Numbered from the stretch's first letter, positions 87 to 36,716 are shown. The stretch is DNA of 37,933 nucleotides from PVC group bacterium (GCA_043804695.1 JAZDIV010000080.1:1-37933), one strand, 5' to 3'. The notes: generated by a model from the sequence alone, not told the origin. Translations and numbers: made by a program.

Positions 87-293
87 TAATCGGAAAGATA
101 CGATTATTGAACTCCCGAAACAGGCGAAAAAGCAACCAGGAAAATATTTTGTTTTATTACGCTCAGGGCTTACCGTTGTTTATTGAGCAGTTGCATTTAA
201 ACTAATTCTTGGATAATCATCAGTCTGTTACAAGTTTAAAAAGTACAATTTACTCCAATTCTTTTAAATTAGCGCCGGAGGCGCTAATTTATA
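87..293 (+). repeat. Leader element A, copy 1 (5'-truncated)
   Basis: Near-identical to 4857-5106 and homologous to 10939-11174; ends in taaattagcgcc-GGA-ggcgctaattta 2 nt before an ATG. Confidence 0.9.
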
Positions 294-630: not shown

Positions 631-655
631 CAAAATTTTTCGGAGAAAAATTTTG
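631..655 (+). promoter_or_regulatory. cGGAg-triloop hairpin overlapping the smc TTG start
   Basis: caaaatttttc-GGA-gaaaaattttg, perfect 11-bp stem; GGAG lies 7 nt before TTG. Confidence 0.65.
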
Positions 656-4205: not shown

Positions 4206-4321
4206 ACCCCGCCTCGCCCCCATTTTTAACAGACGATTGAATGTGATTGAATGGGATGGGCGGTTTCCAGTCCGTTCGACGTTCAACGTCGGAAGTTGGA
4301 AGTTCAACGTTGGCCGTTCAT
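4206..4321 (-). repeat. Composite repeat B (heptamer array + ttcaatcacattcaatcgtctg + AAAAGGGGGCGAGG-like motif)
   Basis: Reverse complement has the same module order as 7646-7764 and 8611-8716. Confidence 0.85.
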
Positions 4322-4584: not shown

Positions 4585-4592
4585 CTTCTCAC

Positions 4593-4711
4593 AATCTTCG
4601 GGGCAGGGTGCGATTCCCGACCGGCGGTGAAAGCCCGCAAACTCCGATAGCTATCGGAGCCGAACCGGCGCGATTCCGGTGCCGACGGTACAGTCCGGAT
4701 GGAAGAAGATT
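4593..4711 (+). promoter_or_regulatory. FMN riboswitch (RFN element) aptamer
   Basis: aatcttcggggcagggtgcgattcccgaccggcggt...gccgacggtacagtccggatggaagaagatt; P1 aatcttc/gaagatt; upstream of riboflavin genes. Confidence 0.95.
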
Positions 4712-4733
4712 CGGAAAAAGGAGCGGTGCCGCA

Positions 4734-4767
4734 TGCCCCGGAGATGGTGTCTCCGGGGTATTTTTTT
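4734..4767 (+). terminator. Intrinsic terminator, riboswitch expression platform
   Basis: tgccccggagat-ggt-gtctccggggta followed by T7. Confidence 0.85.
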
Positions 4768-4795
4768 CTGCGAAAAAATAATAGGCAGTTCTTTT

Positions 4796-4835
4796 AACTT
4801 TAGGCACTTTTAACTTTAGGCACTTTAGGCACTTC
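4796..4835. repeat. 9-mer tandem array (taggcactt)
   Basis: aactttaggcacttttaactttaggcactttaggcacttc; a degenerate inverted unit lies near 6345-6359. Confidence 0.75.
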
Positions 4836-4856: not shown

Positions 4857-5106
4857 GAGGGCTAAGTTCCTGTTTCGGAATTTCAATAATCGGAAAGATC
4901 CGATTATTGAACTCCCGAAACAGGCGAAAAAGCAACCAGGAAAAAATATTTTGTTTTGTTTTGTTTTATTACACTCAGGATTTACCGTTGTTTATTGAGC
5001 AGTTACATTCAAACTAATTCTTGGGTAATCATCAGTCTGTTACAAGTTTAAAAAGGTACAATTCACTCCAATTCTTCTAAATTAGCGCCGGAGGCGCTAA
5101 TTTATA
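4857..5106 (+). repeat. Leader element A, copy 2
   Basis: 5' hairpin ctgtttcggaatttcaataatcgg/ccgattattgaactcccgaaacag, AT-rich middle, 3' GGA-triloop hairpin at 5078-5104 before the ribBA ATG. Confidence 0.9.
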
Positions 5107-6470: not shown

Positions 6471-6544
6471 AAGGGTCCGAGGTAGAGGCCAAAAAATCCT
6501 ATTCAATCACATTCAATCGTCTGATAAAAGCGGCGAGATAGAGG
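6471..6544 (+). repeat. Partial composite repeat B
   Basis: aagggtccgaggtagagg...ttcaatcacattcaatcgtctg...aaaagcggcgagatagagg, parallel to 13318-13399. Confidence 0.8.
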
Positions 6545-7238: not shown

Positions 7239-7655
7239 ATGAGCAGACGACGGCAGGCGAGGGAGCTGGCGCTCCAGTTTCTTTACGGCTACGACCTGAA
7301 CCGGAAGGAGCTGACGGAGGCGTCGGCCGACTTCTGGAAGGGGAAGAATCTTCCCGCTGACGTGCGCCGGTTTGCCGGGGAACTGATCGACGGCACCGTC
7401 GCCCATCTCGATCAGATCGACCGGGTCATCGCCGATCATGCCCGGAACTGGAAGCTTTCCCGGCTCGCCCTGGTCGACAAGCAGATCTTGCGCCTGGCGC
7501 TCTACGAACTCTACTACCGCGATGACATTCCTCCCCTGGTTACCATCAACGAGGCGGTGGAGATCGCGAAGAAATTCAGCACGGACCAGTCCGGCCACTT
7601 CGTCAACGGCATTCTGGACAAGGTTCGGGAAGAAATTGAAAAGAATGAACGTTGA
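7239..7655 (+). CDS. nusB: Transcription antitermination factor NusB
   Basis: RRRQARELALQFLY, NWKLSRLALVDKQILRLA, INEAVEIAKKF, FVNGILD; follows ribH. Confidence 0.96.
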   Translation: MSRRRQARELALQFLYGYDLNRKELTEASADFWKGKNLPADVRRFAGELIDGTVAHLDQIDRVIADHARNWKLSRLALVDKQILRLALYELYYRDDIPPLVTINEAVEIAKKFSTDQSGHFVNGILDKVREEIEKNER

Positions 7656-7764
7656 ACGTCGAACGTCCAACGTTGAACGTCTAACTTCGAACGTAAGAAG
7701 CCCGGATGCCCCCCTCCTATTCAATCACATTCAATCGTCTGTTAAAAAGGGGGCGAGGTGGAGG
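7646..7764 (+). repeat. Composite repeat B overlapping the nusB stop
   Basis: (gaacgtt/gaacgtc/caacgtt)n, aagcccggatgcccccc, ttcaatcacattcaatcgtctgtt, aaaaagggggcgagg. Confidence 0.9.
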
Positions 7765-7786: not shown

Positions 7787-8614
7787 ATGAACGCGGAAAA
7801 AACAGCCGATCTTCACATCCACACCCTGGCCTCGGATGGCGCCTATTCCGCGCGGGAAGTTCTGAACGCGGCCCGGGTGGCGGGGCTTTCCGCCATCGCC
7901 ATCACCGATCACGATTCGGTTGAAGCTCTTCCCGAAGCGATCTCTCTCGCCGAAGAGTACGGGATTGAAGTTATTCCCGGGATCGAGATCTCGGTCGAGC
8001 TGGATGCGGCTGAGATGCACCTGCTCGGGTACTTTGTCGACTATCGGGATCCCGGGTTCCGGGAGCGGCTCGCCCTGCTGCGGCGGGTCCGCGCCTGCCG
8101 GGCGGAGGCGATGCTGAAGATACTTGAAGAGATGGGGTTCCCCCTGGACATGGAGAAGCTGCTCCCCGGCCAGATGACCGGAGCGATCGGGCGACTGCAC
8201 ATCGCCCAGGCTCTTTTCCGCTCCGGTTACGTGCAAAGCCTGTCCGAAGCGTTCTCCAGGTACATCGGCAACAACGGACCAGCGTATGTGTCGAAGATGA
8301 AACTTTCCAAGGAAGACGCCCTGGCAATGATTCTCCGCGCAGGCGGGGTTCCGGTGCTGGCTCACCCGGGGCAGCTGGACAGAGATGAACTGATCCCGGA
8401 TTTGATCAAACTGGGCCTGGCCGGCCTGGAGGCGTATTACCCGTCTCACTCCCGCTTCACGACCAATCACTACCTGGAACTGGCCCGGCATTACCATATT
8501 CTGGCGACGGGCGGGTCGGATTGCCACGGGACGAACAAAGAAAAAATCCTGATCGGCACGGTCCGGGTCCCCTACCGGGTGGTGGAGGAACTGCGGGAGA
8601 GAAATAAAAGATGA
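7787..8614 (+). CDS. PHP-domain metal-dependent phosphoesterase (YciV/TrpH-like)
   Basis: DLHIHT, ITDHD, PVLAHP, TGGSDCHG metal-binding motifs. Confidence 0.92.
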   Translation: MNAEKTADLHIHTLASDGAYSAREVLNAARVAGLSAIAITDHDSVEALPEAISLAEEYGIEVIPGIEISVELDAAEMHLLGYFVDYRDPGFRERLALLRRVRACRAEAMLKILEEMGFPLDMEKLLPGQMTGAIGRLHIAQALFRSGYVQSLSEAFSRYIGNNGPAYVSKMKLSKEDALAMILRAGGVPVLAHPGQLDRDELIPDLIKLGLAGLEAYYPSHSRFTTNHYLELARHYHILATGGSDCHGTNKEKILIGTVRVPYRVVEELRERNKR

Positions 8615-8716
8615 ACATCGAACATCCAACGTCGAACTTCGAACGGAAAAAGCCCGGATGCCCCCCTCCATTCAATCACATTCAATCGTCTGTTAAAAAG
8701 GGGGCGGGGCAGGGGG
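8611..8716 (+). repeat. Composite repeat B overlapping the PHP stop and abutting the ftsY start
   Basis: Same modules as 7646-7764 with fewer heptamer units. Confidence 0.9.
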
Positions 8717-9754: not shown

Positions 9755-10993
9755 ATGGCGATGACCTCCCGGAAGCAACAAGACCGCTTGTTCATGGCCC
9801 GGGCCCTTGCTCTGGCAGTCCGCAGCGGCCGGGCGGTGCGCCCCAACCCGAGGGTGGGGGCGGTCCTGGCGCGAAACGGCCGGGTGATCGCCGCCGCCTA
9901 TCACTCCCGTTTCGGCGGGCCTCATGCCGAGGTGAAAGCGCTGCAGAAGGCCGGCCCGGCGGCCCGGGGCGCCACCCTCTATGTGACACTGGAACCCTGT
10001 TCCAGCTACGGGAAAACCGCGCCCTGCACCGACGTCGTCATCGGGGCCGGTGTTTCCCGGGTGGTCATCGGCTGCCGGGACCGGAACCCGGCCAATGCCG
10101 ATAAGGCCCCGGCGATATTCCGGAAAGCGGGGATCCGGGTCACGGTCGGCGTCCTGGAGAAAGAATGCTCGGAGCTGAACCGGGATTTTTTCACCTGGGT
10201 GGTGCGGGGGAAGCCCTACACGGTCCTGAAACTGGCCCTTTCCCTGGACGGAAAGATAGCGACCCGTACCGGGCAGTCCCGCTGGATCGGCTCGGCCGGG
10301 AGCAGGAGATGCGCCCATTTCCTGAGGAGCCGGTCCGACGCGGTCCTGGTCGGGATCACCACGGTCCTGGCCGACAACCCCCGGCTGACCGTTCGGATGG
10401 GCTATCGCAATCCCGGTCTGAAAAGGGTGGTCCTTGACAGCCGGGGGAGAATCCCGCTCTCTTCCCGGCTGGTCCGGAGGCGGGATCCGGGAAACACCAT
10501 CCTGGCCGCCACTTCCCGGGCCCCGGCTGCCCGGCTGAGGAAGCTTGCCCGAAGAGGGGTTTCCCTGCTTCAGCTCCCGGTCCGTTCCGGCCGGGTCGAT
10601 TTGAAATCACTCTTCCGGCAATTGGCCGGAGCGGGAGTGATGAGGCTGCTGGTGGAAGGGGGGGGAGAGACGGCCGCTTCCGTTCTGGAGGCCGGATTGG
10701 TTGACGAGGTCCATCTTTTCATCGCTCCGGTGATTGTCGGAGGGAGATCGGCCGTCCCCGCGGTGGGCGGTCGGGGGGTTAAAAGTATAAAAGACGCCTT
10801 TCGTTTGACTGGTCTGGTCGTGGAACGCGTGGGCGAGGATATCCATCTGCATGGCTTCATCAAGAACCGTAAAATTATTTGCCCGTGCCCCGATAAACCC
10901 CGATTAAAACTTCGGGGCGGAGGCGGGGTAGACTGTGCGAGGGCTAAGTCCCTGATTCGGAATTTCAATAACCGGATAAAATCCGGTTATTGA
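9755..10993 (+). CDS. ribD: Riboflavin biosynthesis deaminase/reductase RibD (C-terminus runs into repeats)
   Basis: PNPRVGA, HAE, TLEPC...PC, SLDGKIA, DNPRLT, LLVEGGG. Confidence 0.96.
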   Translation: MAMTSRKQQDRLFMARALALAVRSGRAVRPNPRVGAVLARNGRVIAAAYHSRFGGPHAEVKALQKAGPAARGATLYVTLEPCSSYGKTAPCTDVVIGAGVSRVVIGCRDRNPANADKAPAIFRKAGIRVTVGVLEKECSELNRDFFTWVVRGKPYTVLKLALSLDGKIATRTGQSRWIGSAGSRRCAHFLRSRSDAVLVGITTVLADNPRLTVRMGYRNPGLKRVVLDSRGRIPLSSRLVRRRDPGNTILAATSRAPAARLRKLARRGVSLLQLPVRSGRVDLKSLFRQLAGAGVMRLLVEGGGETAASVLEAGLVDEVHLFIAPVIVGGRSAVPAVGGRGVKSIKDAFRLTGLVVERVGEDIHLHGFIKNRKIICPCPDKPRLKLRGGGGVDCARAKSLIRNFNNRIKSGY

Positions 10994-11174
10994 AATTCCG
11001 AAACAGACGAAAAAGCAACCAGAATAAAATAATCAGGTTTTGTCTTATGATACCAAGGGCTTACCGTTACGGATTGAGCGGTTAGACTCGAACTAATTTT
11101 CGGATCGCTATCAATCTGTTTTATATTTATAAAGAGAAAATTCACTAAATTAGCGCCGGAGGCGCTAATTTATA
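10939..11174 (+). repeat. Leader element A, copy 3 (diverged)
   Basis: Same two hairpins as copy 2, with a compensatory T-A to C-G pair; GGA hairpin at 11146-11172 before the ribE ATG. Confidence 0.88.
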
Positions 11175-11807
11175 ATGTTTACCGGAATCATTCAGGAACT
11201 GGGGACCGTCATCCGCCGGGGGGACGGGTCCCTGACGATCGACGCCGGGCGCCTCTCCCGGGAGTGCCGCCCGGGCGACAGCATCGCGGTCAGCGGCGTC
11301 TGCCTGACGGTGGTCCGGGCGGACCCCCCGCAGTTAACCATGGATCTTCTCCTCGAAACCCGGGAGCGTTCTAACCTGGGCGTTCTGCAGCCGGGTGACG
11401 CGGTCAACCTGGAGCCGGTCCTGAAAGCGAGCGGCAGCCTGGGCGGCCACTTCGTCACCGGCCACATCGACGGCCAGGGCGAGCTGGTGTTCGGACGGAA
11501 CGCCGGGCGGGACCGGGTGCTGAAAGTCGCCCTTCCCTCCGGGCTGGAGAAATACGTGGTGGAGAAGGGATCGATCGCTCTCGAGGGGGTGAGCCTGACG
11601 GTGGCGGACATCGCCGGGAACACCGTCTCGGTTCACGTCATACCCTACACGCTTTCCCACACCAACCTGGGGGGAAAAACGGCCGGCGCCCGCTTGAACG
11701 TGGAGACCGACCTTTTGGGAAAGTACGTTATCCGTTATCTGGAGAAGAAAGACGTTCAAAGCCGTTCAATAGATAAAGCATTTCTGGAAGAAACGGGGTT
11801 TATATAA
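11175..11807 (+). CDS. ribE: Riboflavin synthase (alpha chain)
   Basis: MFTGII start, GDSIAVSGVCLTV, GGHFVTGHIDG, KGSIALEGVSLTV. Confidence 0.96.
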   Translation: MFTGIIQELGTVIRRGDGSLTIDAGRLSRECRPGDSIAVSGVCLTVVRADPPQLTMDLLLETRERSNLGVLQPGDAVNLEPVLKASGSLGGHFVTGHIDGQGELVFGRNAGRDRVLKVALPSGLEKYVVEKGSIALEGVSLTVADIAGNTVSVHVIPYTLSHTNLGGKTAGARLNVETDLLGKYVIRYLEKKDVQSRSIDKAFLEETGFI

Positions 11808-12127: not shown

Positions 12128-12790
12128 AATTCAATAATAATTCCTGGCTGGATAAAAAAGCATCCCTTTGTCAGTTTTTTTCTCCTCTCCCTGCTGGTTC
12201 ATGCCATTGTCATTACCCTGACCGGCGGATGGGGGCGGTTGACCGGCGGTGGTGCCCGGGAACTGATCGAGTGTGATTACCGGGAGTTGCCGGAGTCTTT
12301 GGCGGAAGAAGATCAGGGCCTGTCCGGGCCGGTTCTCCCCGAACCTGCTCTCGAGGAGTCAGCGGAGCCGGAAGGAGAGAAGACAGAGCCTCCGCTCCCG
12401 GAAAAAGCGCCCGCCCGGCCCGCTGCCGCGGTGGTCCTGCTCCCGGACAGCAATCCGGCGGAGACCGGGAACGGGGAGTCCGCCCGCGCCCGGGCGCTGG
12501 AAGCCTATGTCGCCTATCTCCAGGATATTATCGATTTCCAGATTGAGTATCCCGAGCGGGCCTCACGGGAAGCTCGGGAAGGGGAGGTGACGGTGGTTTT
12601 CATCCTCAATCGGAAAGGAGAGCTCCTGGCCCTGGGTATTCCCCGTGACGGCGCATCGCCCTTTCATCCGTTTAACCGCGAGGCCCTGCGGGCCGTCCAG
12701 TGTGCCGCCCGGTATTTCGATTCTTTTCCGGAACCCCTTGACGATGAGGAGATAACCTTCCTCCTTCCCATTATTTTTTCCTTACATTAA
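12116..12790 (+). CDS. Energy transducer TonB family protein (start uncertain)
   Basis: TM helix with SLLVH, Pro/Glu linker, TonB_C-like YPERASREAREGEVTVVFIL...EALRAV...LPIIFSL. Confidence 0.85.
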   Translation: MVIWNSIIIPGWIKKHPFVSFFLLSLLVHAIVITLTGGWGRLTGGGARELIECDYRELPESLAEEDQGLSGPVLPEPALEESAEPEGEKTEPPLPEKAPARPAAAVVLLPDSNPAETGNGESARARALEAYVAYLQDIIDFQIEYPERASREAREGEVTVVFILNRKGELLALGIPRDGASPFHPFNREALRAVQCAARYFDSFPEPLDDEEITFLLPIIFSLH

Positions 12791-12847
12791 CCCGATTTAT
12801 GCCTGCCGGTCGACAGACCGGCAGGCATAAATCGGGTTGGTTTTGAA
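12788..12847 (+). repeat. Stop-codon-anchored palindrome, copy 2, with a 26-bp palindrome at its centre
   Basis: taacccgatttat[gcctgccggtc-gaca-gaccggcaggc]ataaatcgggttggttttgaa. Confidence 0.8.
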
Positions 12848-12858
12848 AGTAAGAATCA

Positions 12859-12887
12859 TTGACATTGTCCTTATTTTCAGCTAAACA
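12859..12887 (+). promoter_or_regulatory. Putative rpsU promoter
   Basis: TTGACA-17 nt-TAAACA. Confidence 0.45.
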
Positions 12888-12955
12888 CTTTCTTGTTAGA
12901 ATAAAATTTACGGTTTTATTTTTTCGAAGAAAAAATAAAAGGGGGGTGAATTTAG

Positions 12956-13129
12956 GTGCCTAAAGTTGTGTTGAAAGCGAACGAATCGGTCGATCGGGCC
13001 TTGCGGAGACTGAAGAAGAAAATGGACAAGGAAGGGATTATCAAGCAGTTGAAGAAACACCGCCATTACGAGAAACCAAGCGACCGCCGGCGGAGGATCA
13101 AGAAAAGAACCAGGCCAGCCGGCATGTAA
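12956..13129 (+). CDS. rpsU: 30S ribosomal protein bS21 (57 aa, GTG start, not in ORF track)
   Basis: MPKVVLKANESVDRALRRLKKKMDKEGIIKQLKKHRHYEKPSDRRRRIKKRTRPAGM; ALRR.KK and YEKPS motifs; GGGGGTGA SD. Confidence 0.93.
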   Translation: MPKVVLKANESVDRALRRLKKKMDKEGIIKQLKKHRHYEKPSDRRRRIKKRTRPAGM

Positions 13130-13283: not shown

Positions 13284-13834
13284 AACGTTCAACGTCCAAC
13301 TTCGAACATCGAACGAAAAAAAGGGGCCACGGTAGAGGCCGCTAATCTTATTCAATCACATTCAAATCGTCTGTTTTATAAAGGGGGTGAGGCGGAGAGA
13401 AAAGCGAATAACGAACCGCAGAATATCGAACACCGAATATCGAAGTAAAAGAGCTGAGACAAGGCGAACCTTCAGACTTCGCTAAAGCTACGTCAGACAG
13501 GTCGAAGTTCGATGTTCATTATTCGACATTTGGTAACACTTTAGCTCTTTGAAAGTGACGACCATCTATCTCGTTACCACGCTCCGCGTGGTAACGCTTA
13601 GTTTATCGTTCCCACGCGGAGCGTGGGAACGAGGGAATGAACGTCGAACATCCAACGTTGAACATTCAACATCGAACGAACAAAGTCCCGTCGTCTGTTA
13701 AACAAAGGGGGTGAGGCGCGGGTATTTTTGTGTCTTTTGCGCCTTTTTGCGGCTGATCAAAAAGGGTGAAGCGGGGGAAACAATCAGAGTAATCTGTGTA
13801 ATCTGTGGACTTAAAAAGGGGCCGAGGTAGGGGG
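13284..13834. repeat. Intergenic repeat cluster: five AAAAGGGG..GAGG-type motifs separating different 7/9/10-mer arrays, plus REP-like palindromes
   Basis: Motifs at 13318, 13380, 13704, 13759, 13813; arrays of gaacatc, ttcaatcaca, gaatatc, ttttgcgcc, aatctgtgt. Confidence 0.85.
13570..13633. repeat. REP doublet (REPIN-like)
   Basis: ctcgttaccacgctccgcgtggtaacg-10 nt-cgttcccacgcggagcgtgggaacgag. Confidence 0.8.
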
Positions 13835-15366: not shown

Positions 15367-18300
15367 CTATTTCCCCTCGATCCAGACCGGGATCCCGATG
15401 GTGTCGTGGCCGCCGCCCCAGGTGACGCCGGTGCTGACCGGCGGCGTGTTCCAATACATGGCCCGCTCGATGATGAGAGGGATCTTGTTCGCGAACGGTT
15501 CCGTGGTCTCTTCGACGCGGGCGGAGATGGCGTTAATCTCCCCGAGGACGTTGTTGACATACAGGGTCTGGCGGGTGTTCGGGTCGATCGTCACGTAGGT
15601 GTTGATCGGCGGATCATTTTCAAAGTAGAAGGTGATGCGGGCCCGGGCGGTCCGCGCCGGGTCGGGGTTGGCCATCAGGATGTACTCATCGAAGATGTCG
15701 GTTGCCCCTTCCGGCAGGTACCAGACCGGGGCCGGTCTCACAGCCCCGATGCTGTCGTGCCCGCCGGCCCAGGGGATTCCCCCCGCCATCCAGTACATCG
15801 CCCGCTCGCACATGATGAACACCCCGTTGGTGGACTCCACGACGGCCGAGACGTGAGCCTGATATCCGACGAAGTTCTTCACCTCCATCGTGTACCGGGA
15901 GTGGGGCCCCACCGTCTCCGCCTGCTCCAAGATGATCCCGTCCAGATTCATCAGGGTTATCTTGATCTCGGCCTCCCGGTCCGGCGAGGGATTGATGACC
16001 AAAATGTACTCGTCGAAGAGATGGGTAGCCCCTTCCGAGAGGTACCAGATGGTCGAGACCTCGGTGGTCCCGAGGGAGGCGTGCCCGTCGATCCACTTGA
16101 TCGTCTCCGGCGGTTCCCCGGGGAAGGAGTCCCAGTACATGGTGCGGTCGGCGGCGACCGGGACGCAGCCGCTGGGCGGCCACTTGGCCACGATCGCCGG
16201 GTTCGGTTGGGGGAGGGACTCCACCATGGTGGCGAGCTGGTCCTGGCTGCCGGCGACCTCGTTGGCGTGGACGGTCCAGTTGCTCTCGGAGCCGATGAAG
16301 GTCTGGGCGGTGAAGGTGTCCCCGTACTTGTTCATGAAAGTGACCCGGACGTCGGCCGCGAAGTCCTTGTCCGGGTTGACGACGTGGATGAATTCGTCGA
16401 ATATATGGGTCGCTCCTTCCGGCAGGTACCACCTGGCGGATATCGTGTTGCTGCCCACGCTGTTGTGGCCTCCCCCCCAGGTGACCCCGCCGGCGTCCCA
16501 GTACATCGAGCGGTCAACCATGATTACCCGGTCGGTCAGGTCGTAGACGAGGAGGGAGACGGAGTCGTTCTTCTCTCCCCGGGTCCCCTTGAGCATGTCG
16601 TTCAGGTAGAGGGTGTGGCGTGACTCGGGGGAGACGATATCGTTGACCCGGCGGATCGGCCCCAGTTCGTCCAGCGCGGTGATTTCGATGTAAGCGTCAT
16701 CCGTGGTCGGGTTGGTGATTGAGACGTACTCGTCGAAGTCGAACCCGTTGATCTCGGTCCCGCCCGCCGCCACGTACCAGTAGGCGTACGAAGGGGTGGG
16801 GGTGGGGGTGGGGGTGGGGGTGACCGACGGGGACGGCGTTTTGTATCCTTCCGGAGTCGGGGTCGGCTTCGGCGTCGGGGTAATCTTCGGTGTCGGGGTT
16901 ATCTTCGGCGTCGGTGTTACCGAGGGCGTCGGCGTCGGGGTCCGGGTCTGTACCGGTGTCGGCGTGGAACTGGGGGTGGTCCAGAGAGCGTCCAGGTACT
17001 GGGTCGCCGTTTCGTGGTAGGTCCAGGCGCTGAACCAGGTCTGGCCGGGTCCGGTCCCGTAGGTCCACTGGGCCGCGTACCAGCGGTACTCCGGCATCCC
17101 GTAGATCTCCCGCCAGGCGCCGGTGGACCAGCCGATGGTGTAATAGGTATCGGGAACGGGGTTATTGCTGATCCAGAGGTAGAGGAAGCTGTGGTGAATC
17201 TGGTCCCGGTAATAGAAGTCGATCCGGGTCGGCGTCGGGACCGGCGTCTTGTACCCCGCCGGCGTCGCGGTGGGCATCGGGGTGGGGGTGGCGGTTTTAT
17301 ATCCGACCGGCGTCGGCGTTCTTGTCGGCATCGGGGGAGGCCGCGTCGGCGGAGGAACGATCGGCGTCGGGGTCCCGGTCGGCGTCACCGACGGGGTCGG
17401 CGTCACCGTCGGGGTAGGTGTCACCGTCGGCGTCGGGGTCGGGGAGGGGAGGGCGAGCGCTTCGTGGGCGCCGATGTTGAAGGATTCCTGCGGGGATTTC
17501 GTGACCGGCGGACCGGGGACCAGCGCTCCTGGACAGGTCGTCTGCGGCCGGGTGACCCCGTCCATGTCGTAGCCGCCGGCATAGCGGTAAGCGCCGGCGC
17601 AGATCAGGGGCGAGGTCCAGTGGATGTGATAGTTCCCGGCCGGGGCGTTGGTGAAGAGCGGATCGAGAGAGACATTTCCGTTGATCCCGTCATAGTCGCC
17701 GTCCTCGATGTCGCAGTAATAAACCATATCGGTCTGGACGCCGAAGAGGTCGTCCCCGTTGTTCCAGAGAATGTCATTGATCAGGAGAATGCTGTCATCG
17801 ACACTGTCAATCTCGATGCCCCCCCGTCCGCCGTCACCGGTATTGGCCGCGATGGTGCAGTTGACCACGACCGGGGCGGATGAGTTCATCGCGTAAAGGG
17901 CCGCCCCATGGCCGGACGCTCCGGTCGCGGTGTTGTTCCTGATCACGCAGTTGGAGATGAACGGCGAGGAGGCGTAGCAGAAAATTCCCGCCCCCGGGCC
18001 GTTGTAGTTCGCGTTCCGGATGGTGAAGCCGTCCACCAGGGCGCTGGAGATGCCGCTGAAAAGGATCCCCCGCCCCCCGGCGGCGTCGATGATCGTATCG
18101 CCGGCATACTCTCCGAGCAGCGCCATCCCTTCCTTCATCGAGATGTCCCTCTCAGCGTAGAACCCGGCCCGGACGATGATGGAGAGCGGGCCGGTGTTGT
18201 CCGCGATCGCCGCCTTGATCGAGGTGTAGTCCGCCCACCCGTCATCGTCAACGACTACTGTCTGGGGCGACCAGGCCAGGTTGGGATCGGTCCCGAACCC

Positions 18301-21300
18301 GTATTCGAGGTAATTGTTGATCCGGTCGTTGTCCGGGTCGCCCCCGGCCCCGTTGACCAGGAAGTAGAAGCCGTCGTCGGAGGGATCGATCAAGTGGTCG
18401 CTCTCCCATCCGTCCGGTGTGCTGTCCCCGTCGGAGTCGGGGTCGAGCAGGTTGGGGATGCCGTCCCCATCCCAGTCGTAGTTCCAGGTGGTGACGGCGC
18501 CGCCCGGGAAGTCGCTGTTGTGCTGAACGTTCCAGTAGCTGACCTCGTCCCCGTCCTCCAGGCCATCCCCGTCGGTGTCGACGGCGGCGGGGTCGGTTTT
18601 GTAGTACACCGCTTCCGCGCCGTCGGAGAGAGCGTCCCAGTCGGAATCCGGGTCGAGGATATTGACGATGTGGTCGCCGTTGTCGTCGCTCTCCCAGCGG
18701 TGGGGGTTGGCGGGGTTAGCCGGCCAGTCGACGTCGTGGACGGTGTTCCAGTAGGTCACCTCGTCAGAGTCGGTGAGGCCGTCGAAGTCGGTGTCCCGGT
18801 TGAGGGGGTCGGTCAGGTAGTAGTATTCCTGATAGTTGGTGAGGCCGTCCGGCTCCTCATCAATATTGGGATTCTGCCCGGTAGCCGCGAAGTACTTCAT
18901 CTCCCACCAGTCGGGGAGGGTGTTGTAGTCCTGGTCAACATACTCGTCGGCCCCGATATCGTAATAGTAATACCCGTCGATCCCCAGCCCGGTCACCGGC
19001 GCGGAGAGGTAGTTCCAGCGGGCGTCGCCCTCGTAGTCGTAAAGCATCGCCTTCCAGCTGGTGCCGGCATTGATATTTGGGTTGGTCTGCCCATAAAAGG
19101 TGCTCAGGTGGAAGTAACGGCTGTAAGCGTGATAGAAACCGGGTTCGGCGGAGATGTTGCCGTAAAAGCCGTTATAGTCGCCGTCCTGAATATTAGAGCT
19201 GGAGACCATGTTTGCGGTGGCCCCCTGCAGGTCGTCCCCGTTATCCCAGAGGATGCAGTTGGCGATCCGGGGCGATGCTCCGGAGGCGATATAGATGCCG
19301 CCGTAGTTGTTGTAGCCGGTGTTCTGGGCGATGGTGCAGTCAATGACGAGCGGGCGGGCGGCGGAACCGGTGATATAGAGAGCCCCGCCCCGCCCCGTCC
19401 CGACGGCGGCATTGTTGTGGATCATCAGGTTGCTGAGTGTCGGGGAGGCATTGAAGAGGTAGAAGGCTCCCCCGGACCCGCTGTTGGAAGCGTTCCTGAT
19501 CTCAAAGCTGTCGATCTTGGCGGTCTGGATGTTGAAGGCGCTGAAAGCCCTTCCGGCCCCCCCGGCGTCGATGACCGGCCGCTGGTAAGGGTCGGCGCCC
19601 ATCAGGGCGATCCCGTTTCGGGTCAGCTCCAGGTTAGACTCGTAATATATCCCCGCGGTCACCAGGACGATCGCCGGGGCGTTCGTCGTCTCCTTCCAGT
19701 CAAGAGCGTCCTCGATGGTGTCCCAGGCGGCGGCCCAGGAGGAACCGTTGCCGCCCGGCGCGGCGGAAGCGTCCACGTATCGGGTTTGAGGGGAGCCGGA
19801 ATTGAGCGGGTTGGTCCCGAAATAATATTCTTCCAGGTTGTTCAGGCGGTCCCCGTCCGGGTCGCCCACGCCGCCGCTCTGGATGTTGAACTGCCCGTAA
19901 TCGGCCGGGTTCAGGCTGTAGAAGACCTCCCACCCGTCCGGGCAGCCGTCCCCGTCGGAGTCCTGGTCGAGGAGGTTGACCACGCCGTTGCCGCCGCCGT
20001 AGTTGATGTCGGCGGACCAGTTCGACCAGCTGCTGGCGTTCCAGTAATCAACTTCGGAGCCGTCGCCGAAGTTGCCCTGAAAGCCGTCGTCGTCGGTGTC
20101 CGGGTCAAGAGGATTGCAGGTGACCGAGGAATATGGGGTGTTGGTGTAAACGTAAACTTCATCCCCGTCTAATAGGCCGTCATTATCAGTATCAGGATCA
20201 AGAGGATTGGTGCTCCCCTGATAATAGGTGATTTCCTCGCCGTCGGTGAAATGGTCGAAGTCAGTGTCCGGATTATTCGGATTAGTATAGCGATCGTACT
20301 CCTCGATGTTGGTGAAGGGGTTGCCGATGATACCGTCCTGGTCGGGGTCCTGCTGGTAGCCGTATCCCAGGTGTCCGAAGAATTGATATTCCCAGTAGTC
20401 GGGGAGGAGGTCGGTGTCGGTGTCAACGTACTCGTCCGCCCCGATGTCGTAGATGGTGGGTCCGGTAACCAGGGGATCCTTCCAGCGCGATTCGCCGTCG
20501 TAATCAGTCACGGGGATTATAACGCCGTCGGTTCCGCGATCGATGCAAGGAGAATAGGCGAAGTAATTGGAGATCAGGTGGAAATCGTATATGTATTCCT
20601 CGTTACCCATGTAGGCGAGCTTGTAAAACCTGGGATTGGCGCTCAACCCGCTTTGATCGCGGGCGCTGGCTTCCGTCCAGTCGTTGAAAGTGACCCGGTC
20701 GCCGTTCCAGTAGCCGACAGAAGCGTTCCCGGTGGAATAGAGGTCATTCCAATCCGAAGCGAATCCGCTCTGACTGGCGGCATCCACGTAAACCGCATGC
20801 TCTCCTGTCCCGATACTCCAGGATATATTATTTTTAAGATCATTGTTGGGAGAGTTCAGAAGGCGCAGGCCCGCGGTGGTGTTGTCGTAAATGGTATTGT
20901 TGTAAATTTCGCAGCGCTGCGCGGTATTGAGGAGGATGCCGGCGCCCCCGTTGAGGTAATCCATCGTATTCTGGATGCGGTTGTAGTCGCCGGTGACCTC
21001 GATCCCGTCGCCGCCGTTGGCATAGCTCTGGCAGCTGTTGACCATGTCATGCTCCCCGGCGATCAGGAGCCCGCTCCCTCCCGCGCCGGTAAAATCGATC
21101 CCCTGGACGATGGTGTAATAGCTGTGGATCTCCAGGAGGTGACTGACGAAGCCGTCCCCGGTCATGGTCGGGCGCCCGTTATACCCTTCGATATGGATCG
21201 GCAGCTCCTGGGTACCGGAATGGGCGTCCGTCACCGATACGGGACTCCCGGTGACGGTGAAATCGCCCCCGGCGTCCAGATAGATTCTGTCACCCTGCTC

Positions 21301-24300
21301 GAGAATGGTGCTGGTCAGCACATCCCGGAATTCCTGGGTGTCGGTTACATAGTAGTTGGCGGCGGTCTTGAATGTCCACCAGTTCGGGGAATCGGTGTCT
21401 CCGCAGAACTGGCTCTCGTTCGGAAGATCGGCGTCGTCCCGGGCTTTAACCTGCCAGTAATACCAGGTCCTGTTCGAGAGAGTCTGCAGGCTCCATTCCG
21501 GATCGGCCAGCCAATCGGACAACCGCAGGCCCGTTGCCGAGTTGAACGTGGAGACGATATCGAGCCGGAAGTAGTATGGCTGGGCATTCAAGCCGGCCAG
21601 TGCATCCTGGGCGGTCAGAGCGGAAAGGGTAAGGGCGCCGGGGTGCCCGATCGACCCGTTGTCGGGGGAAGCGCACCCGACGTTGGTCGGGTGGGAATTA
21701 TCGATCATAAAGCGCCCGCTGGCGCTGACGACTGCCGGGTCAGAGTCGTCCGAGACGCGGACCTGGCAAGTGTCTCCGTCGGGGTAGGCGGTGGTGTTCC
21801 AGACCGGGTAGGTGAAATCGCTCCAGGCTAACCCCGTGGCGATGGCGGTGAAGCTGGTACCGTCGGTAGCGTATTCGAGGCTGACGGTGTCCCCTCCCCC
21901 CCAGCCGTCCCCGACCGGAAGCCAGGCCAGGTCGTGGGAGCCGCTCCACTTCTCCCCGCCGACCGATCCGCCGTAGGGGGTGACCAGGAAGAGGGTGTCA
22001 AGCGAGGAGCGGGACGCCTCCGCGGTCCCCCCGGAGGCCCCCTGGTTGATGCGGTTCCCGTTGGGAGCGGTCTCGAGGAGGTAATCATCGTACGGATTTC
22101 CCGTGTTCAGGGAGGGGCTGTCGGCGGCGTCTGCGGCCCAGCTCCCAAAATGGTAGGACCCTTCGGTACTCTGAGGGTGGAAATCATCGTCGGCCCCGTG
22201 ATCACCCCCGATGATTCCGTCCGGCCCGGCCGGATCGACAAAGAGGGGATCCGCGCTCAGGCTGTGCTGGTCCTGGCGGCTGGCGATCTGCCAGGCGGCG
22301 AGCGTTGTCCGGGGGCCTCCCCAGTAGCCGAGGGTGGCGTTACCGTCGGCGAACAGGTTATTGAAGTCGGAGAACTGACTTGCAATGAAGAAGACACCAT
22401 AATTCCCGGTCCCGGAAGTCCAGACAGTGTTGTTCTTGGCCGCGCCGCCGGGGTCGTTGACATAAATTTCCTGGCCGGAGTTCTGGTAAAGAGTGTTGTT
22501 TTCGATCAAAGCGGACTGTCCGCTGAAAGCGGCGCCGTCCCCCAGGTTGCGGTAGACCAGGTTGTTCCGAAAGATGGCGGCCGAGGAGGAGAAGGAAGCC
22601 CCGGATTCCTCGTTGGAATAGATCGTGTTGCCGTCGGCCTCCGTCGAATTGGAATCGGAGACCGCCAGGCCTGAGTAATTGAGGAAGATGGCGTTCCCGG
22701 TGACGGAGAAACCCGGGCACTTGTTGGCCTGGAGCCCGGCATGGCTGGTCCGATACCCGTAGTTTTTCCCGATCAAATTTCCGGATATGATGGGGCCGGA
22801 GCAGTCTTGAAATTGAATCCCGCTAGTGATATTCCCGGTGATAAGATTACCGGAGATGGTTATCGCAGAACCTCCCGTGCCATAGATGCCAACCCCACCG
22901 GAAGTTATCGCGCCGGCGCTGCTCTGCCCGTTCCAGGTAATGGCGGAGTCGCGGACGGCGATATGATCCGCCTCCTGCAGACGCAGGCCGTAGTCAAGCG
23001 CCGAGGCTATCGCCAGTTCTTCCAGTTCCAGGTATTCGGCCTGATTGAGATAGATCCCGGTATTGACGGCGGCGTTCCCCCGCAGGAGCGAGCGGTTTGG
23101 AGAGCCGGTCAGGAAGACCGGGTTCCCCGCGATCCCGGAATCCGGGAGCCCGATCTCGACCGTGGCGGCGAGAGGATAGCTTCCGGTGTCGACGTAAACG
23201 GTGTCCCCCGGTTCCAGGTCCACATTGTCGATCAGGGCTTTCAAAGTCGCCTTGGGGCGATTGGGAAGGGTGCCGCCGTAGGAATCGCTCCCGATGGAGG
23301 TGGTATAGACATCGTCCTGAGTGCTGGTGTCGTTGACCCAGTAATTGAACCCCGTCCCGCCCGGCGAGCGGGAGGCCTGGTAGGTGTTCCCGTACGCGCC
23401 CAGGTTGATCCGCCCCCCCTTAGGGGAGGACTCGAGGGCATAGCGGAAGGCGGGGTCGCCCGCGTCGATGCCGGGCGAGACCGAGATGTCGGCGTCGGTC
23501 CAGGCCGCCCACCCCACCCAGCGCCCGTAAGGGCTTTGCAGGTGATAATCATCGGCCCCGGGGGCGAAGAGGGGGTCCAAACTCAGGCTGCCCCCGTCCT
23601 GGAGGGAAGCCCCCTGCCAATCGTTCAGGGTGGACAGGTCTCCCCCCCAGTAGCCGGTGTAAGCCGGGGCCGGTCCCAAAATATCGTTGTAATCCGAGGC
23701 AAAGTCGTCTTCGCTGGCGGCATCGACGTAGATCCCGTGGGCGTCGGTAGCCGCCGCCCAGAGGATATTGTTGCGCAGATAGCTGTGGGGGGCATTTTGA
23801 CAGATCACTTCCCCCCGGTTGTTGTTGTGCGAGGTGACGTTGACCACCCGGTTCCCTTCCCCCCCGTCGAGGGAGAATCCCGCCCCGGCGTTCCGGTAGG
23901 CGAGGAAGTTCACCAGTTGATTGGCATTCCCGGTGACCAGGACCCCGTCGCCCCCGTTGGCCCAGGACCGGCCCCGGAACACGATGTTATTGTCGCCGCT
24001 GACCAGCAAGCCGGCGCCGGTAGCCCTTGTGAAACTGACGTTATCCAGGATGGTGTTGTTCCCTTCCAGGATCAGGCAGTTGGCGATGGCGTTGTTCCCG
24101 TCCAGAATGACGCCCGGGCCGCTGCCGGCGATCCGAACGGGATAATAGTTTGAACCTTCATCTCCGGTTGAAATCGTGAGCGGGGAAGTGATGATGTAAG
24201 TGCCGGAAGAGACGTACACGGTGTCGCCGGGTTCGAGATCGCGGTTGGCAAGGATCCAGCGCAGGCCGGTGGTCGCGGCCTCGATGCTCGTGGCGTGATG

Positions 24301-27300
24301 CACCGCGCTGGTAGAGAACGTTCCGTAGCCGGCGGTGTCGGCATTGAAGCCGCAGAAGGTTGATTCGTTGAAGATTTCGTCCCGGGCTTTCACGCGCCAG
24401 TAATAAGTCTTGCCGGTGGACAGGCCGGGGCACCACATGTTGAGGGCGATCCAGCCGGAGCTGATTAAATCAGGCGGGGTGAAAGAAGGGTCGTTATCCA
24501 CCTGGAAGTAATAGGGAAGCGCGTGGAGGCCGACCAGGGCGTCCCGGGCGTCCCGGGCTCTTAAAGGCACGTAATCCGGAAGCCCGGTCTCCCCCTCCTC
24601 GGGCAGAAAGCAGGAGACGTTCCCGGGGGGGGTATTGTCGATCGTGAAGGTGCCGCTGCTGGCCTTGAGGCCCGTCGGCTCGCGGATGGAGATCTGGTAG
24701 GAATTGCGGTCCCCGCTGGCCGAGAGGGTATTCCACCCCGTGTACTGCTGGGTGGGGTAGGTTTCGGTGGAGATGGTGAAGAAGGAGGTCCCGCCGGTGG
24801 TGTATTCGAGGATGAGTGGGTCCCCGGAGACCCAGTCCTCTCCCACCGCGAGCCACCTGATGTTGTGGACGCCGTTCCATTTTTCTCCACCCAGGGGCTC
24901 CACCATGGCCAGCGTCTTGCGGTCGGCGAGCGACGCCTGGTCCGTCCCGCCGTAGGCCCCGATGTTGATGCGGCCGCCGCTGGGGCGCGGCTCGCCGGTG
25001 TAGTCCGAGCCGATCGGCTGGAAGACCCTCATGCCGGCTCCGGCGGCTTCGTCGATCCCGGAAACGCCCGTCAGGTTGTTCCCGGTCTTGCCGGTATAGG
25101 CGATGAAGTCCCCCCGGATTTCGACCGCGGAAGTCTGATCGAGGAAGTTGGCGGCGTCGGTGAGCTCGACGAAGGTCGATGAGGGATCGATCGGAGAGGC
25201 GAGGTACGAATCGGCGGTATAGATCTGCCCCAGGTTCAGCCCCGGGCCGGCGTTGGTGTCGGCGGTCCAGTTCCCGTCGTGGTAGCTCCCGAGGGGGGAT
25301 TGGACATGAAAATCCCCGGATTCCTTGCCGACAAAAACGGGGTTCAGGTTGAGGCTGGCGCCGTCCTGGGAACTGGCCAATTGCCAGGAGGGGAAGGTGG
25401 GTCGCTTCCCCATCCAGTAGCCGATGTTGGCCCCGCCGGTGGCGTAGAGGATGTTGTAATTGGAGGTGTAATCCCCGGGGTCGGGGAAGCGCTGGATATA
25501 AATGCAATAACTGGCGTCCGTCCCGGACGCCCAGAGAATATTGTTGACGATGGGAATCTGCGCGGAGGAAGAGTTTATGAATAATTCGTTGACGTTGCTG
25601 TAGCAGGTGTTGCTGATGATATATGAATTTGAACACCCGTTGAGATAAATCCCGTCCGCCTGATTTCCATGGGAGACGTTATGGGAAACGGTCGATAGGC
25701 TGGATTCTCTCAGGTAAAGTCCTTGTCCGCGGTTGGCGGAAAAGACATTTCCCGAGATCGTGGAAGCGGAACACAGATACAGATACATCCCCAGGCTGTT
25801 TCCGTCGCTGACATTATCGCGGATCGCCCCCGCCGTTCGATAGAGATAAAGGCCGATCCCGGCGTTGTCCCGGGCTGTGTTGCCGATAATCCGATTCTGA
25901 CCACTTACATAATAGCAATAAACCCCCATCCCCAGGTTGGAGATGCTGGAGTTATCTAAGAAGCTCAGAGAGTTCACCGAGAAAACATAAAAACCCTCCA
26001 GTAGGTTACTGTCGGCCCTGTTCCCGGAGATCAACGGTTCGTCCCCCGCGTTGTAAAGATGGAAACCGCGCCCATAATTGTAAGACGATGAATTATTGCG
26101 CAACGATAAACTTTGGCAGTTCAAGGTCAGGTAAAAACCATCGATCCCGCTGCCTCGGGCCTCGCAGTCCGCGATCGCGCAATATTGGGAAGAGGAGAGT
26201 AAGAAAGCGTATGAAGCGGCGTTGAAGACCTTGAGGCGGCTCAAGGTCACATAATGTTTAGCATTGAGATATAAGCAGATGGGCACCACGCCTTCAATAT
26301 CCAGGATGGTGGTGTTGGGCGAACCGGATATGGTCAGGGGATTACCCGCGCTTCCGGATGAGGGAAGGGAGATGGTCCCGGTGACCGTGTAGAGCCCGGT
26401 GTCCACGTAGACGGTGTCCCCGGCCGCGACCGTGTGCGCGTTGAAGACCGCTTGTAGGGAAGGCAGGGGATCGTTCGGCGAGGTGCCGGTATGCAGAGGC
26501 CAGGGGAGGCCGGTGGTGGCGCAGTAAAAATCCCAGTCGGGGGAGGAGTCGTTGACATAGTAATTATTCCCCGCCGCCGTTCCGGGGGAACGGGAGGCCT
26601 GCAACGTGTTGCCGTAGGCCCCGATGTTGATCCTTCCGCCGTTGGGGGCGGATTCGAAAGCATAGATAGACGCGGGGTGGCCCTTGTCCAGGCAGGGGGA
26701 GGCCTGGGTGTCGTCGGTCCAGGCGATCCCGTTCCATCTCCCGGCGGTGCTCAGGAGGTGGTAGTCGTCCGTTCCGGGGGCGAATAATGGGTCGGCGGAG
26801 ATGCTTGTCTGGTCCTGGAAGGACGCGCCGGTCCAGGCCGCGAAGGCGGCGGCGGTGGCGCTGTTCCAATAGCCGATGGCGGCCCCCGCCGTCGCGTAGA
26901 GGTCATTGTAATCGGATGACAGGCCGACCTGGCTTTCCTCCTCGACGTACGCCGCCACCCTCCCCGGGCTCCCGGCCCAGAGGATGTTGTTCTCCAGCGT
27001 GCAGTACGTCGAACCGACGCGGTGATCGGGTGCAGCGGGAACATAATCTTCCAGGAATACTTCCCGCGTTCCGTTGTTCGTGCAGGTATTATTCTCGATC
27101 AATCCGTGATGGGAAGTATAGAGGTGGATCCCGGCCAGGAGATTGTTGTACAGACGCATATTTTTGATCGTCACGTAATCGCCGGTAACCTCGATCCCGT
27201 CGCTCTGGTTGCCCCAGCTCGCCCCTCCCCAGAGCGTGTTGTGGTCGCCCGTGATCAGGACCCCGGAACCGGCGGCGTTGGTGAACTGGAAATTCTCTAT

Positions 27301-33057: not shown

Positions 33058-33080
33058 TTATTTTTTCTTCGAAAAAATAA
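33058..33080 (-). promoter_or_regulatory. cGAAg-triloop hairpin directly abutting the giant-gene ATG
   Basis: Minus strand ttattttttc-GAA-gaaaaaataa-ATG; identical 23-mer upstream of rpsU at 12916-12938. Confidence 0.65.
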
Positions 33081-33601: not shown

Positions 33602-33624
33602 TAATTTTCTCGGAGAGAAAATTA
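33602..33624 (+). promoter_or_regulatory. cGGAg-triloop hairpin 2 nt before ATG
   Basis: taattttctc-GGA-gagaaaatta-ta-ATG, perfect 10-bp stem. Confidence 0.65.
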
Positions 33625-35264: not shown

Positions 35265-35303
35265 TCCCCCTACGACGCCCCCTTTTTAAACAGACGATCG
35301 AAT

Positions 35304-35725
35304 GTGATTGAATGGGGTTTTGGCCCGTGCCCGGGGCATGTAAAGACGGTAAGCAGTAAAAGTGACATCCCGGTGCTGGGCCAACCGTTTACTGATCACT
35401 GTTTACTGATTACTTGTTTTTCGGTTCGACGTTCGATGTTCATTTGTTATTTCTCCCCGCCTTGGCCGCTTATAATGATCCAGCCAAGACCCCCGTGACT
35501 TTATGCCACGGGTGAATTAGTTTATCCGCTGCAGAAGCTCGCTCCTCCCAACTTCAAACCGTGCGAGGGCCGGGAGGGGGGATCGCCGATGTAGCCGGCG
35601 AACTTGCGCTCCGGTGAGATTCCTTCGACTTTGCTCAGGATCTTCGAAAACTCACCGGGGGCGTACTCGAATATCAGGCATAAATGGTATACGTTTTACC
35701 TGTTACCCTCAACTGTCAACCATCT
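35304..35725. repeat. ~420-bp direct repeat, copy 1 (composite of smaller elements)
   Basis: Aligns by eye with 36288-36910 at high identity apart from heptamer copy number and one MITE. Confidence 0.92.
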
Positions 35726-36167: not shown

Positions 36168-36716
36168 AAAATGAAACTTGCATCAGATCACGATCATTTA
36201 TTTGAGTAACATGAAGGCAATCCACTATTAAAGTTTCGGGGCGGATCAGACGATTGTCTAAGATCCGGCAAGCTTTTTGACGAGGAGGTGATTGAATGGG
36301 GTTTTGGCCCGTGTCCGGGGCATGTAAAGACGGTGAGCAGTAAAAGTGACATCCCGGTGCCGGGCCAACCGTTTACTGATCACTGCTTACTGATTACTTG
36401 TTTTTCGTTCGACGTTGGAGGTTGGATGTTCGATGTTGGACGTTCGATGTTGGACGTTCGATGTTCGATAGTTCATTTGTTATTTCTCCCCGCCTCGGCC
36501 GCTTATAATGATCCAGTCAAGACCCCCGTGGCTTTATGCCACGGGGAGAATTAGTTTATCCGCTGCAGAAGCTCGCTCCTCCCAACTTCAAACCGTGCGA
36601 GGGCCGGGAGGGGGGATTGCCGATGTAGCCGGTGAACTTGTGCTCTGGTGAGATTCCTTCGACTTTGCTCAGGATCTTAGAAAACTCACCGGGGGCGTAC
36701 TCGAATATCAGACATA

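Follow-up and report, generated by a model that had tools for sequence, protein, structure and literature searches.

The locus studied here raises the question of why one leader sequence of roughly 240 bp should occur three times within a single stretch of bacterial DNA, on each occasion directly before a start codon and twice among riboflavin genes. An earlier note, made from the sequence alone, had read this repeat (element A) as a portable structured leader or ribosome-site module, either an unrecognised cis-regulatory RNA or an element which inserts at start codons and supplies its own initiation signal. We have examined the repeat both in the window, by which we mean the whole 37,933-nucleotide stretch of DNA that was analysed, and in related genomes.

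Three copies of element A and their setting

All three copies lie on the plus strand, in the sense of the gene that follows, as the earlier note had reported. Their positions, and those of the structures associated with them, are as follows (SD, Shine-Dalgarno).

87..293, plus strand: element A copy 1, 5'-truncated (profile positions 26-234), before DUF5989
265-291, plus strand: SD hairpin of copy 1, 12-bp stem and GGA triloop; DUF5989 ATG at 294
4590-4714, plus strand: FMN riboswitch aptamer (Rfam, 108 bits), about 350-520 nt upstream of ribBA, terminator included
4733-4761, plus strand: the riboswitch's own terminator, a hairpin followed by a T run
4857..5106, plus strand: full-length copy 2 of element A, after the FMN riboswitch terminator and before the ribBA ATG (5108)
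4869..4924, plus strand: long 5' hairpin of copy 2; stem of about 25 bp interrupted by mismatches, 6-nt loop
5078-5104, plus strand: SD hairpin of copy 2, 27 nt; ribBA ATG at 5108
10939..11174, plus strand: full-length copy 3 of element A, located between ribD and ribE
10952..11006, plus strand: long 5' hairpin of copy 3, 26-nt arms, with a perfect 22 bp at 10956-11002
11146-11172, plus strand: SD hairpin of copy 3, 27 nt; ribE ATG at 11175

The start codons at 294, 5108 and 11175 follow the 3' hairpin after gaps of 2, 3 and 2 nt respectively; the proposal that the element always ends 2-3 nt before a start codon therefore holds for all three copies in the window, but it is not universal among relatives. 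Pfam identifies the downstream products as DUF5989, the DHBP synthase/GTP cyclohydrolase II RibBA and the riboflavin synthase RibE. Copies 1 and 2 are 89.5% identical, and either of them is 73.5-76% identical to copy 3. In copy 1 the long stem is without its outer 5' arm, and this copy is located behind a terminator-like hairpin at 41-62. Terminator hairpins at 38-75 and 12790-12850 form a family in their own right, with a common foot (CCCGATTTAT ... ATAAATCGGG) and the tail TTRGTTTTGAA.

Inspection of the three window copies revealed neither terminal inverted repeats (TIRs) nor a target-site duplication and, as had been claimed, the element holds no convincing ORF, a point on which inspection and the indels between copies agree. 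Two candidate identities could be rejected on these grounds. The element does not behave as a MITE, its two ends being unrelated to each other and the flanks of copies 2 and 3 lacking a duplication, and a conserved ORF in the body is ruled out because of the indels between copies, whose short ORFs are unlike one another. The 25 nt or so that flank copies 2 and 3 on their 5' side are a separate repeat, which is present in another MAG as well, and a 'distant' blastn search with copy 3 against plasmids and phages gave no match.

Coding sequence in the window has a G+C content of about 60-73% and intergenic sequence one of about 35-45%. The order along the window is DUF5989, smc, the FMN riboswitch, ribBA, ribH, nusB, a PHP protein, ftsY, ribD, ribE, a TonB-like gene, rpsU and others. 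The best named relative of RibBA (81% identity) is labelled Candidatus Auribacterota, and it is probably to this uncultured lineage that element A belongs.

With two of the three copies in the rib operon, a link to riboflavin metabolism had to be considered. An intact FMN riboswitch with its terminator stands upstream of copy 2, which is therefore part of the ribBA leader; this arrangement argues that copy 2 would be transcribed through rather than serve as a riboflavin sensor. A riboflavin-specific leader is ruled out by this separate, intact riboswitch at ribBA together with the unrelated genes found downstream of the element elsewhere. The location in the rib operon remarked on in the earlier note is thus incidental, because ribBA has its own riboswitch and terminator and because the 14 Pfam-annotated downstream genes in relatives have nothing to do with riboflavin. 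A unit of about 14 nt is repeated three times at about 4795-4835, between the riboswitch terminator and element A.

At copy 3 the ribD frame stays open until 10991-10993, with the stop and last codons of the gene falling inside the element. All 119 other RibD homologues listed are 352-401 aa long and cover at most 90% of the 412-aa ORF in the window; because these 119 lack it, the C-terminal tail of about 40 aa (10850-10993) seems peculiar to this genome, and it carries no information on when element A arrived. An out-of-frame TAA is present at about 10869 in ribD, where an indel or an assembly error is possible. N-terminal extensions of RibBA homologues (418 aa) were checked for translated hairpin sequence and none was seen.

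The 3' hairpin and its pairing

Irrespective of how far they have diverged elsewhere, all three copies end at their 3' side in the identical 27-nt hairpin TAAATTAGCGCCGGAGGCGCTAATTTA. When up to 3 mismatches were allowed there were three sense-strand matches to it in the window against none expected from 100 shuffles, the search having also scored near-palindromic reverse complements to give 6 matches in all. The loop and 3' shoulder of the hairpin hold a GGAGG, 8-12 nt before the start codon, and near each of the three ATGs this motif occurs solely within the hairpin, just as the earlier note had described for what it called an invariant hairpin. The module has a 19-nt core with an 8-bp stem, which in most copies is extended to 27 nt and a 12-bp stem; by inspection, its 5' arms open with TAAATT or TAATTT, after which 4-6 nt lead into the loop. 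When the 27-nt unit is read by eye together with the TA spacer that it usually has, stop codons appear in two frames, one of which is the frame of the downstream ATG, with the stop 9 nt ahead of that ATG. The predicted stability of the hairpin is -15.9 kcal/mol, which leaves the SD half buried, and by inspection the distance from GGAGG to ATG is 12 nt as compared with 4-9 nt at other genes in the window.

The 3' hairpin is constrained as a paired structure. Copies 1 and 3 differ at about 26% of positions in the body and yet share 27/27 positions of the hairpin, an identity whose probability under equal drift is, by our own arithmetic, about 2.5e-4. Among the loci found in related genomes (numbered with the prefix L; see below), variants preserve pairing through a G-C to A-U exchange in L026b, an A-U to G-C exchange in L001 and a different outer stem in L010. 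In a hairpin alignment of 12 rows (A3), double changes occur in 12/16 pairs and the observed values were reached by 0/500 shuffles, although covariation is inflated here by three rows (two from L011 and the 5' hairpin of L026b) that were picked as perfect hairpins and are paired by construction, and the 19-nt core was also the search key. Compensatory changes of the kind that the earlier note proposed to look for are therefore present in the hairpin (12/16 pairs, 0/500 shuffles), with some rows preselected as perfect hairpins.

The remainder of the element presents a different picture. The compensatory T-A to C-G change noticed earlier in the 5' stem is genuine, and across 5 sequences the covariation of the 5' hairpin amounts to double changes at 2 pairs, which is not significant (181/500 shuffles). 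Folds of the whole element are much more stable than those of shuffled sequences (z of -7.8 for copy 3 and -4.5 for copy 2). A conserved RNA fold of the body was ruled out: RNAalifold gives three short helices of 4-5 bp only, and of its 26 predicted pairs 4 show a double change, one of these being in the hairpin. Given that the body has so little conserved structure, a ligand-sensing cis-regulatory RNA is unlikely. Rfam had been named as a further check, and no known family matches element A: at the gathering threshold the sole match across the window and six loci is the FMN riboswitch, which lies outside the element, and with E up to 10 the segment 4560-5130 returned only this riboswitch and sub-threshold matches to generic hairpins.

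Relatives of the hairpin and the modular build of the element

A scan of genome contigs with the 19-nt core, in a collection made up of genomes other than the window's own, returned 35 loci, 16 of them in one uncultured MAG (CAWGIE), 14 in another (CAKZYZ) and 5 elsewhere. The last five (3 Dehalococcoidia, 1 Kapaibacterium and 1 Chitinophaga) were left out as possibly independent hairpins, since a palindrome with a GGA loop leaves just 8 free positions and chance identity is possible. Three of them (L002, L034 and L012, from Dehalococcoidia single-cell assemblies) have the core 12-14 nt before the start of rpsM (S13) or rplD (L4), with a separate SD after each hairpin; these cores may be chance convergence or a shared element.

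Within the two MAGs, 16/30 loci have an ORF of 60 aa or longer that starts no more than 6 nt from the end of the core, a long-ORF start lies 16-40 nt past the core at a further 4/30 (that of L010, at 20 nt, being doubtful), and the remaining 10/30 have no long-ORF start within 45 nt. Fourteen of the 16 adjoining ORFs carry Pfam domains and every one is different: S9, ThrC (threonine synthase), a SpoU methylase, an NDK-domain protein, GT2, PMT_2 and an M48 peptidase, together with NAD kinase, GshB (glutathione synthetase), MnhE, PAS, an acyltransferase, FAD_binding_5 and SmpB. The downstream genes of the two MAGs have no orthologues in common, and none of 14 window proteins had an orthologue at any of the 35 loci in a tblastn search. 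The orientation of the hairpin is also biased, as in the perfect-hairpin set of 20 family hairpins a long-ORF start falls between -3 and +6 nt of the hairpin end on the GGA strand in 13/20 cases and on the opposite strand in 3/20. The hairpin therefore precedes unrelated genes in two other genomes, which supports the original idea of a portable structured leader with a ribosome-site hairpin at its 3' end.

Searching with a profile of the whole element uncovered a nested series of 5' truncations in which every copy keeps the 3' end.

Profile extent 2-234: copies 2 and 3, L035, L013
Profile start 3: L005, in which a different, unrelated hairpin replaces the long 5' hairpin
Profile start 12: L031
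Profile start 26: copy 1
Profile starts 34 and 61: two copies in L026
Profile start about 120: L024, L009, L017
Profile start 142: second copy in L011
Profile start 176: L028
Hairpin alone: remaining loci

At about half of the MAG loci the hairpin has no body and its position is nevertheless conserved, and the sequence upstream of it is unlike between loci, so that the same hairpin is found behind unrelated DNA. Where a body is present it retains its core sequence even in a diverged subfamily (L024, L009, L017 and L011), and copy 3 is 88.9% identical to L035, at a different locus in a different genome. Eight of the 9 distinct body-bearing copies are in gene sense with a start at most 12 nt after the hairpin. 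The view of element A as one indivisible 240-bp unit has consequently to be given up, given that the hairpin occurs without a body and that bodies are truncated from the 5' side; the element is a dispersed modular repeat whose downstream genes are functionally unrelated.

How compact the arrangement can become is seen at L018 and L004, where the stop codon of an upstream co-directional ORF lies inside the 5' arm of the hairpin. At L018 the next ATG follows 2 nt past the hairpin, which thus makes up approximately the whole intercistronic region and leaves no room for a promoter. At L004 the GGA hairpin is followed by the T-rich tail of this lineage's terminator hairpins (TTRGTTTTGAA). The one exception in orientation is L013, with the near-identical L021 and L029, in which a body in antisense orientation separates two co-directional genes. 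The hairpin of this copy lies 2 nt past the stop of the first gene and the transcribed strand still reads GGA in the loop, which, as a single event, may be chance. These three loci of the CAWGIE MAG are near-identical over at least 320 nt compared around the hairpin, which points to a segment of several kb, present in multiple copies and bearing an antisense element A.

Some copies also bear a candidate promoter. A sigma-70-like site is present about 35 nt before the hairpin, at the same position of the element, in L013 (TGGACA, 17 nt, TATCAT; 10/12 consensus matches) and in L031 (TGGATA, 17 nt, TATCAT; 9/12 consensus matches). A consensus promoter scan at that position found nothing in L017 or in copies 1, 2 and 3; as only some copies pass (2/6), a promoter in the element would be optional or decayed. 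In copy 1 a promoter-like site at 76-104 straddles the 5' boundary of the element. Copy 1 most likely needs a promoter at or within the element, and co-transcription as leaders is the most likely situation for copies 2 and 3.

Hairpins of similar shape and unrelated sequence also stand near starts elsewhere in the window.

631..655, plus strand: smc hairpin, unrelated sequence, GGA triloop, 11 bp; TTG start (653) in the 3' end of the stem
12914..12940, plus strand: rpsU leader hairpin, GAA triloop, 12 bp, 15 nt before the GTG (12956); a separate G-rich SD follows
33058..33080, minus strand: hairpin of a 5896-aa ORF, unrelated sequence, GAA triloop, 10 bp; ATG immediately after
33602..33624, plus strand: orf33627 hairpin, unrelated sequence, GGA triloop, 10 bp; ATG after 2 nt

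Outside the family searched for, the 146 kb made up of the window and 28 MAG loci (L021 and L029, which duplicate L013, were excluded) contain 26 perfect triloop hairpins whose stems reach 9 bp or more, against 0.75 in shuffled sequence. All-purine loops are found in 20/26 (GGA 6, GAA 6, AAA 5, AGA 2, GGG 1), and those of the same shape with GAA, AAA or AGA loops have no SD. A start is abutted by 6/26 on the purine-loop strand and by 2/26 on the other. The purine-triloop shape is common in these genomes and its association with starts is non-exclusive.

The window contains a number of further repeats. Adjacent hairpins of 11-12 bp at 13572-13596 and 13606-13632, in a gene-poor stretch, have GGA loops on opposite strands and represent another family, of which an AGA-loop relative is found at 2187-2211 of L007 (CAKZYZ MAG). 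A tandem 7-nt unit (roughly AACGTYS) forms intergenic arrays at 7648-7699, 8600-8651, 13284-13321, 13415-13452 and 13647-13684, and inverted ones at 4271-4318 and 36399-36472; arrays of a similar kind are found ahead of the hairpin core both in the CAKZYZ MAG and at the Dehalococcoidia locus L012. A second leader-like repeat of about 37-48 nt, ending in AAAAAGGGGG, occurs at 6493-6529, 7716-7753 and 8668-8715, in gene sense, with the start of ribH, the PHP gene or ftsY following 15-50 nt further on, and inverted at 4207-4260 and 35279-35321; by eye it has a possible -35/-10 pair with a 17-nt spacer. The 57-aa ORF at 12956-13129 (GTG start), which from its sequence we take to be ribosomal protein S21 (rpsU), has a promoter-like site at 12874-12902 and a 5'-proximal GAA hairpin. 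The 5896-aa ORF (15367-33057, minus strand) is internally repetitive at a period of about 1.5-3 kb (families D2-D5 and D7), and direct repeats at 35304-35423/36288-36407 (120 nt) and 35510-35682/36544-36716 (173 nt) are 96-97% identical and about 1 kb apart.

Explanations for the element and its likeness to known repeats

On balance we think it reasonably likely that element A is a dispersed modular cassette of 5' leader and ribosome site, of the REP2/CREN kind, with a promoter-like site in some copies. The hairpin would be its essential 3' module, read as RNA and carrying the gene's only SD, and might act as a self-contained stop/start junction which terminates upstream translation and supplies the ribosome site of the next gene. 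The upstream body, which measures about 150-210 nt and includes both a conserved core and a 5' hairpin of 22-25 bp, would be optional and could be lost from its 5' side. Any gene behind the element would in this way be given its leader and ribosome site, and in some cases a promoter as well. Local folding may make initiation independent of the upstream sequence, or may protect the 5' end after processing, and the 12-bp stem may shorten the effective distance from SD to AUG. Action at the RNA level, use of the SD, an effect on translation or stability and the spread of the copies are all features that we infer. A number of observations sit less comfortably with such a cassette: the SD is half buried in a stem of -15.9 kcal/mol, a spacing of 12 nt is long and the hairpins with GAA or AAA loops are SD-less; 10/30 hairpins lack a nearby long-ORF start and one body copy (L013) is antisense; just 6/26 non-family hairpins abut a start and 2/6 copies have the promoter-like site; and no mobilising enzyme was seen among the 16 window proteins scanned.

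One alternative would be a selfish, non-autonomous mobile element of the REP/BIME or IS200/IS605 type with no host function, where the position at start codons reflects a preference for inserting into AT-rich DNA combined with tolerance by the host, and the GGAGG is incidental or was co-opted later. Dispersal at non-orthologous loci in three genomes, hairpins at both ends without TIRs or target duplication, intergenic regions that are a mosaic of other short repeat families, the antisense copy and the nested 5' truncations with a common 3' end all fit this explanation. We nonetheless consider it unlikely, as the hairpin is invariant while the body drifts, GGA is on the transcribed strand even in the antisense copy, the hairpin is the sole SD of essential S9, SmpB, NAD kinase, ribBA and ribE, no transposase or RAYT was found among 16 window proteins, and the bias towards gene sense is 13/20 against 3/20. 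The partial sequestration of the SD in a stable hairpin can also be read as the expression platform of a regulon leader, in which the body binds a protein or small molecule and the genes are co-regulated. The hairpin-loop GGA resembles, as we see it, a CsrA-type binding site, and the body core is conserved in the diverged subfamily as well as between copy 3 and L035 (88.9% identity). Co-regulation has been reported for the Neisseria CREN genes in the accounts of PMC3184786 and PMC9031163. This explanation appears quite improbable to us, considering that the downstream genes share no pathway, the hairpin lacks a body at about half of the MAG loci, the body is only weakly structured and without an Rfam match, and ribBA is already under an FMN riboswitch.

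We give very little credence to a signal at the DNA level, for which the RNA hairpin would be irrelevant and the palindrome would act as a cruciform, as a promoter component or as the operator of a dimeric protein. C-GNA-G triloops are very stable DNA mini-hairpins, a -10-like hexamer opens the 5' arm and the loop is placed where transcription would start. Against this, the loop is asymmetric with GGA on the sense strand of the gene, stems of differing sequence at one position speak against a single DNA-binding protein, and the compensatory changes preserve a pairing that a promoter does not need. Hairpin-only copies, moreover, have no conserved -35 at a fixed distance, and hairpins are found between tightly packed co-directional ORFs. 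A bolder version of the cassette proposal, and in our view a rather unlikely one, is that the 19-27-nt hairpin is itself a mobile, REP-like ribosome-binding site (stops, SD and spacer) which is actively copied before housekeeping start codons. Taken with the purine-triloop hairpins of unrelated sequence at other starts, it would indicate a lineage-specific mode of initiation in which the folded stem sets the SD-AUG distance. An enzyme that recognises the hairpin could do the copying, or the process could begin at the 3' end, in which case nested, 5'-truncated bodies with a common 3' hairpin would be left.

If the cassette proposal holds, an uncultured phylum-level lineage would build many of its translation starts from one interchangeable cassette, a natural counterpart of the standardised, insulated ribosome-binding sites of synthetic biology, and repeats would rewire the start signals of essential and not just accessory genes. 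There would also be consequences for annotation, since gene callers may misplace starts or extend ORFs into repeats, as with RibD here, and repeated leaders can be mistaken for riboswitch-like regulators of their host operon.

The cassette proposal can also be set against known systems. In CsrA-type sites a short hairpin overlaps the SD and shows GGA in its loop, which usually has 5-7 nt; the GGA loop of element A overlaps the SD as well, but has 3 nt, and equivalent hairpins have GAA or AAA loops. The left end of IS200, which has no TIRs, forms a terminator-like hairpin and then a hairpin covering the ribosome-binding site of the next gene. Element A resembles it in having hairpin ends without terminal inverted repeats, but where IS200 has a transposase gene behind the hairpin, element A has any host gene and no transposase in view. 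In the wider comparison with IS200/IS605, hairpins are present at both ends without TIRs or target-site duplication, and neither a transposase nor a conserved target sequence was seen. REP/BIME elements of enterobacteria and pseudomonads, as far as their description goes, are likewise short, conserved, transcribed intergenic palindromes that occur in many copies and form mosaics; they affect mRNA stability. REPs lie mostly at the 3' ends of genes and without an SD, and their defining link is to RAYT transposases. The 19-nt core is a conserved palindrome in many copies (16 and 14 in the two MAGs and 3 in the 38-kb window), and a Pfam scan of 16 window proteins contained no transposase or RAYT domain. 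RNase III cleaves the hairpins of Correia elements. As summarised in PMC3184786, Correia elements (CREE, Neisseria) and ERIC share with element A a small size and a place near the 5' side of genes. They may include promoters and fold as RNA into long hairpins, and transcript stability is altered by some of them, but they have TIRs and target duplications, neither of which is present in element A.

Our literature search found no description of a repeated SD-in-triloop hairpin before start codons, and in one paper that names Auribacterota (PMC9324843) the terms intergenic, hairpin, palindrom, MITE and Shine-Dalgarno do not occur. Closer parallels exist in other bacteria. IR-A and IR-B of Borrelia plasmids are described as gene-adjoining repeats with a ribosome-binding site, two stem-loops, a promoter and a start codon (PMC3184786), and resemble element A in their place immediately before genes and in their two stem-loops; they differ in being plasmid-borne and of low copy number with both stem-loops near the 5' end, and an SD-bearing hairpin abutting the start is absent from that description. 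The nearest likeness is to the Neisseria REP2/CREN repeats (Parkhill 2000 and Morelle 2003, as reviewed in PMC3184786; for CREN also PMC9031163), and it is one of analogy, as the two were compared by description and belong to different phyla. REP2/CREN elements are reported to be 120-150 bp long, with two stem-loops and no terminal inverted repeats (Delihas 2011, PMC3184786), and REP2 is stated to contain a promoter, a ribosome site and an ATG and to lie immediately upstream of 14 co-regulated genes (PMC3184786). Going by these accounts, they share with element A a dispersed intergenic distribution, a length of 120-150 bp or somewhat more, two internal stem-loops, the lack of TIRs and a position in gene sense directly before ORFs; REP2/CREN repeats give these ORFs a 5'-UTR and a ribosome site, with a promoter in some copies, and element A may do likewise. 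Element A itself falls, as a dispersed repeat, in the range of about 120-250 bp without TIRs (3 copies in the window, 9 distinct body-bearing copies) and stands in gene sense immediately before an ORF in 3/3 window copies and 8/9 distinct ones, L013 and its duplicates being the exception. As far as the published descriptions allow a comparison, REP2 includes the ATG whereas the spacing between hairpin and ATG in element A varies from 0 to 6 nt; REP2 marks a co-regulated set whereas element A precedes ordinary housekeeping genes; and element A, with its mostly degenerate promoter-like site, is set apart by a separable 19-27-nt SD hairpin that is also found alone.
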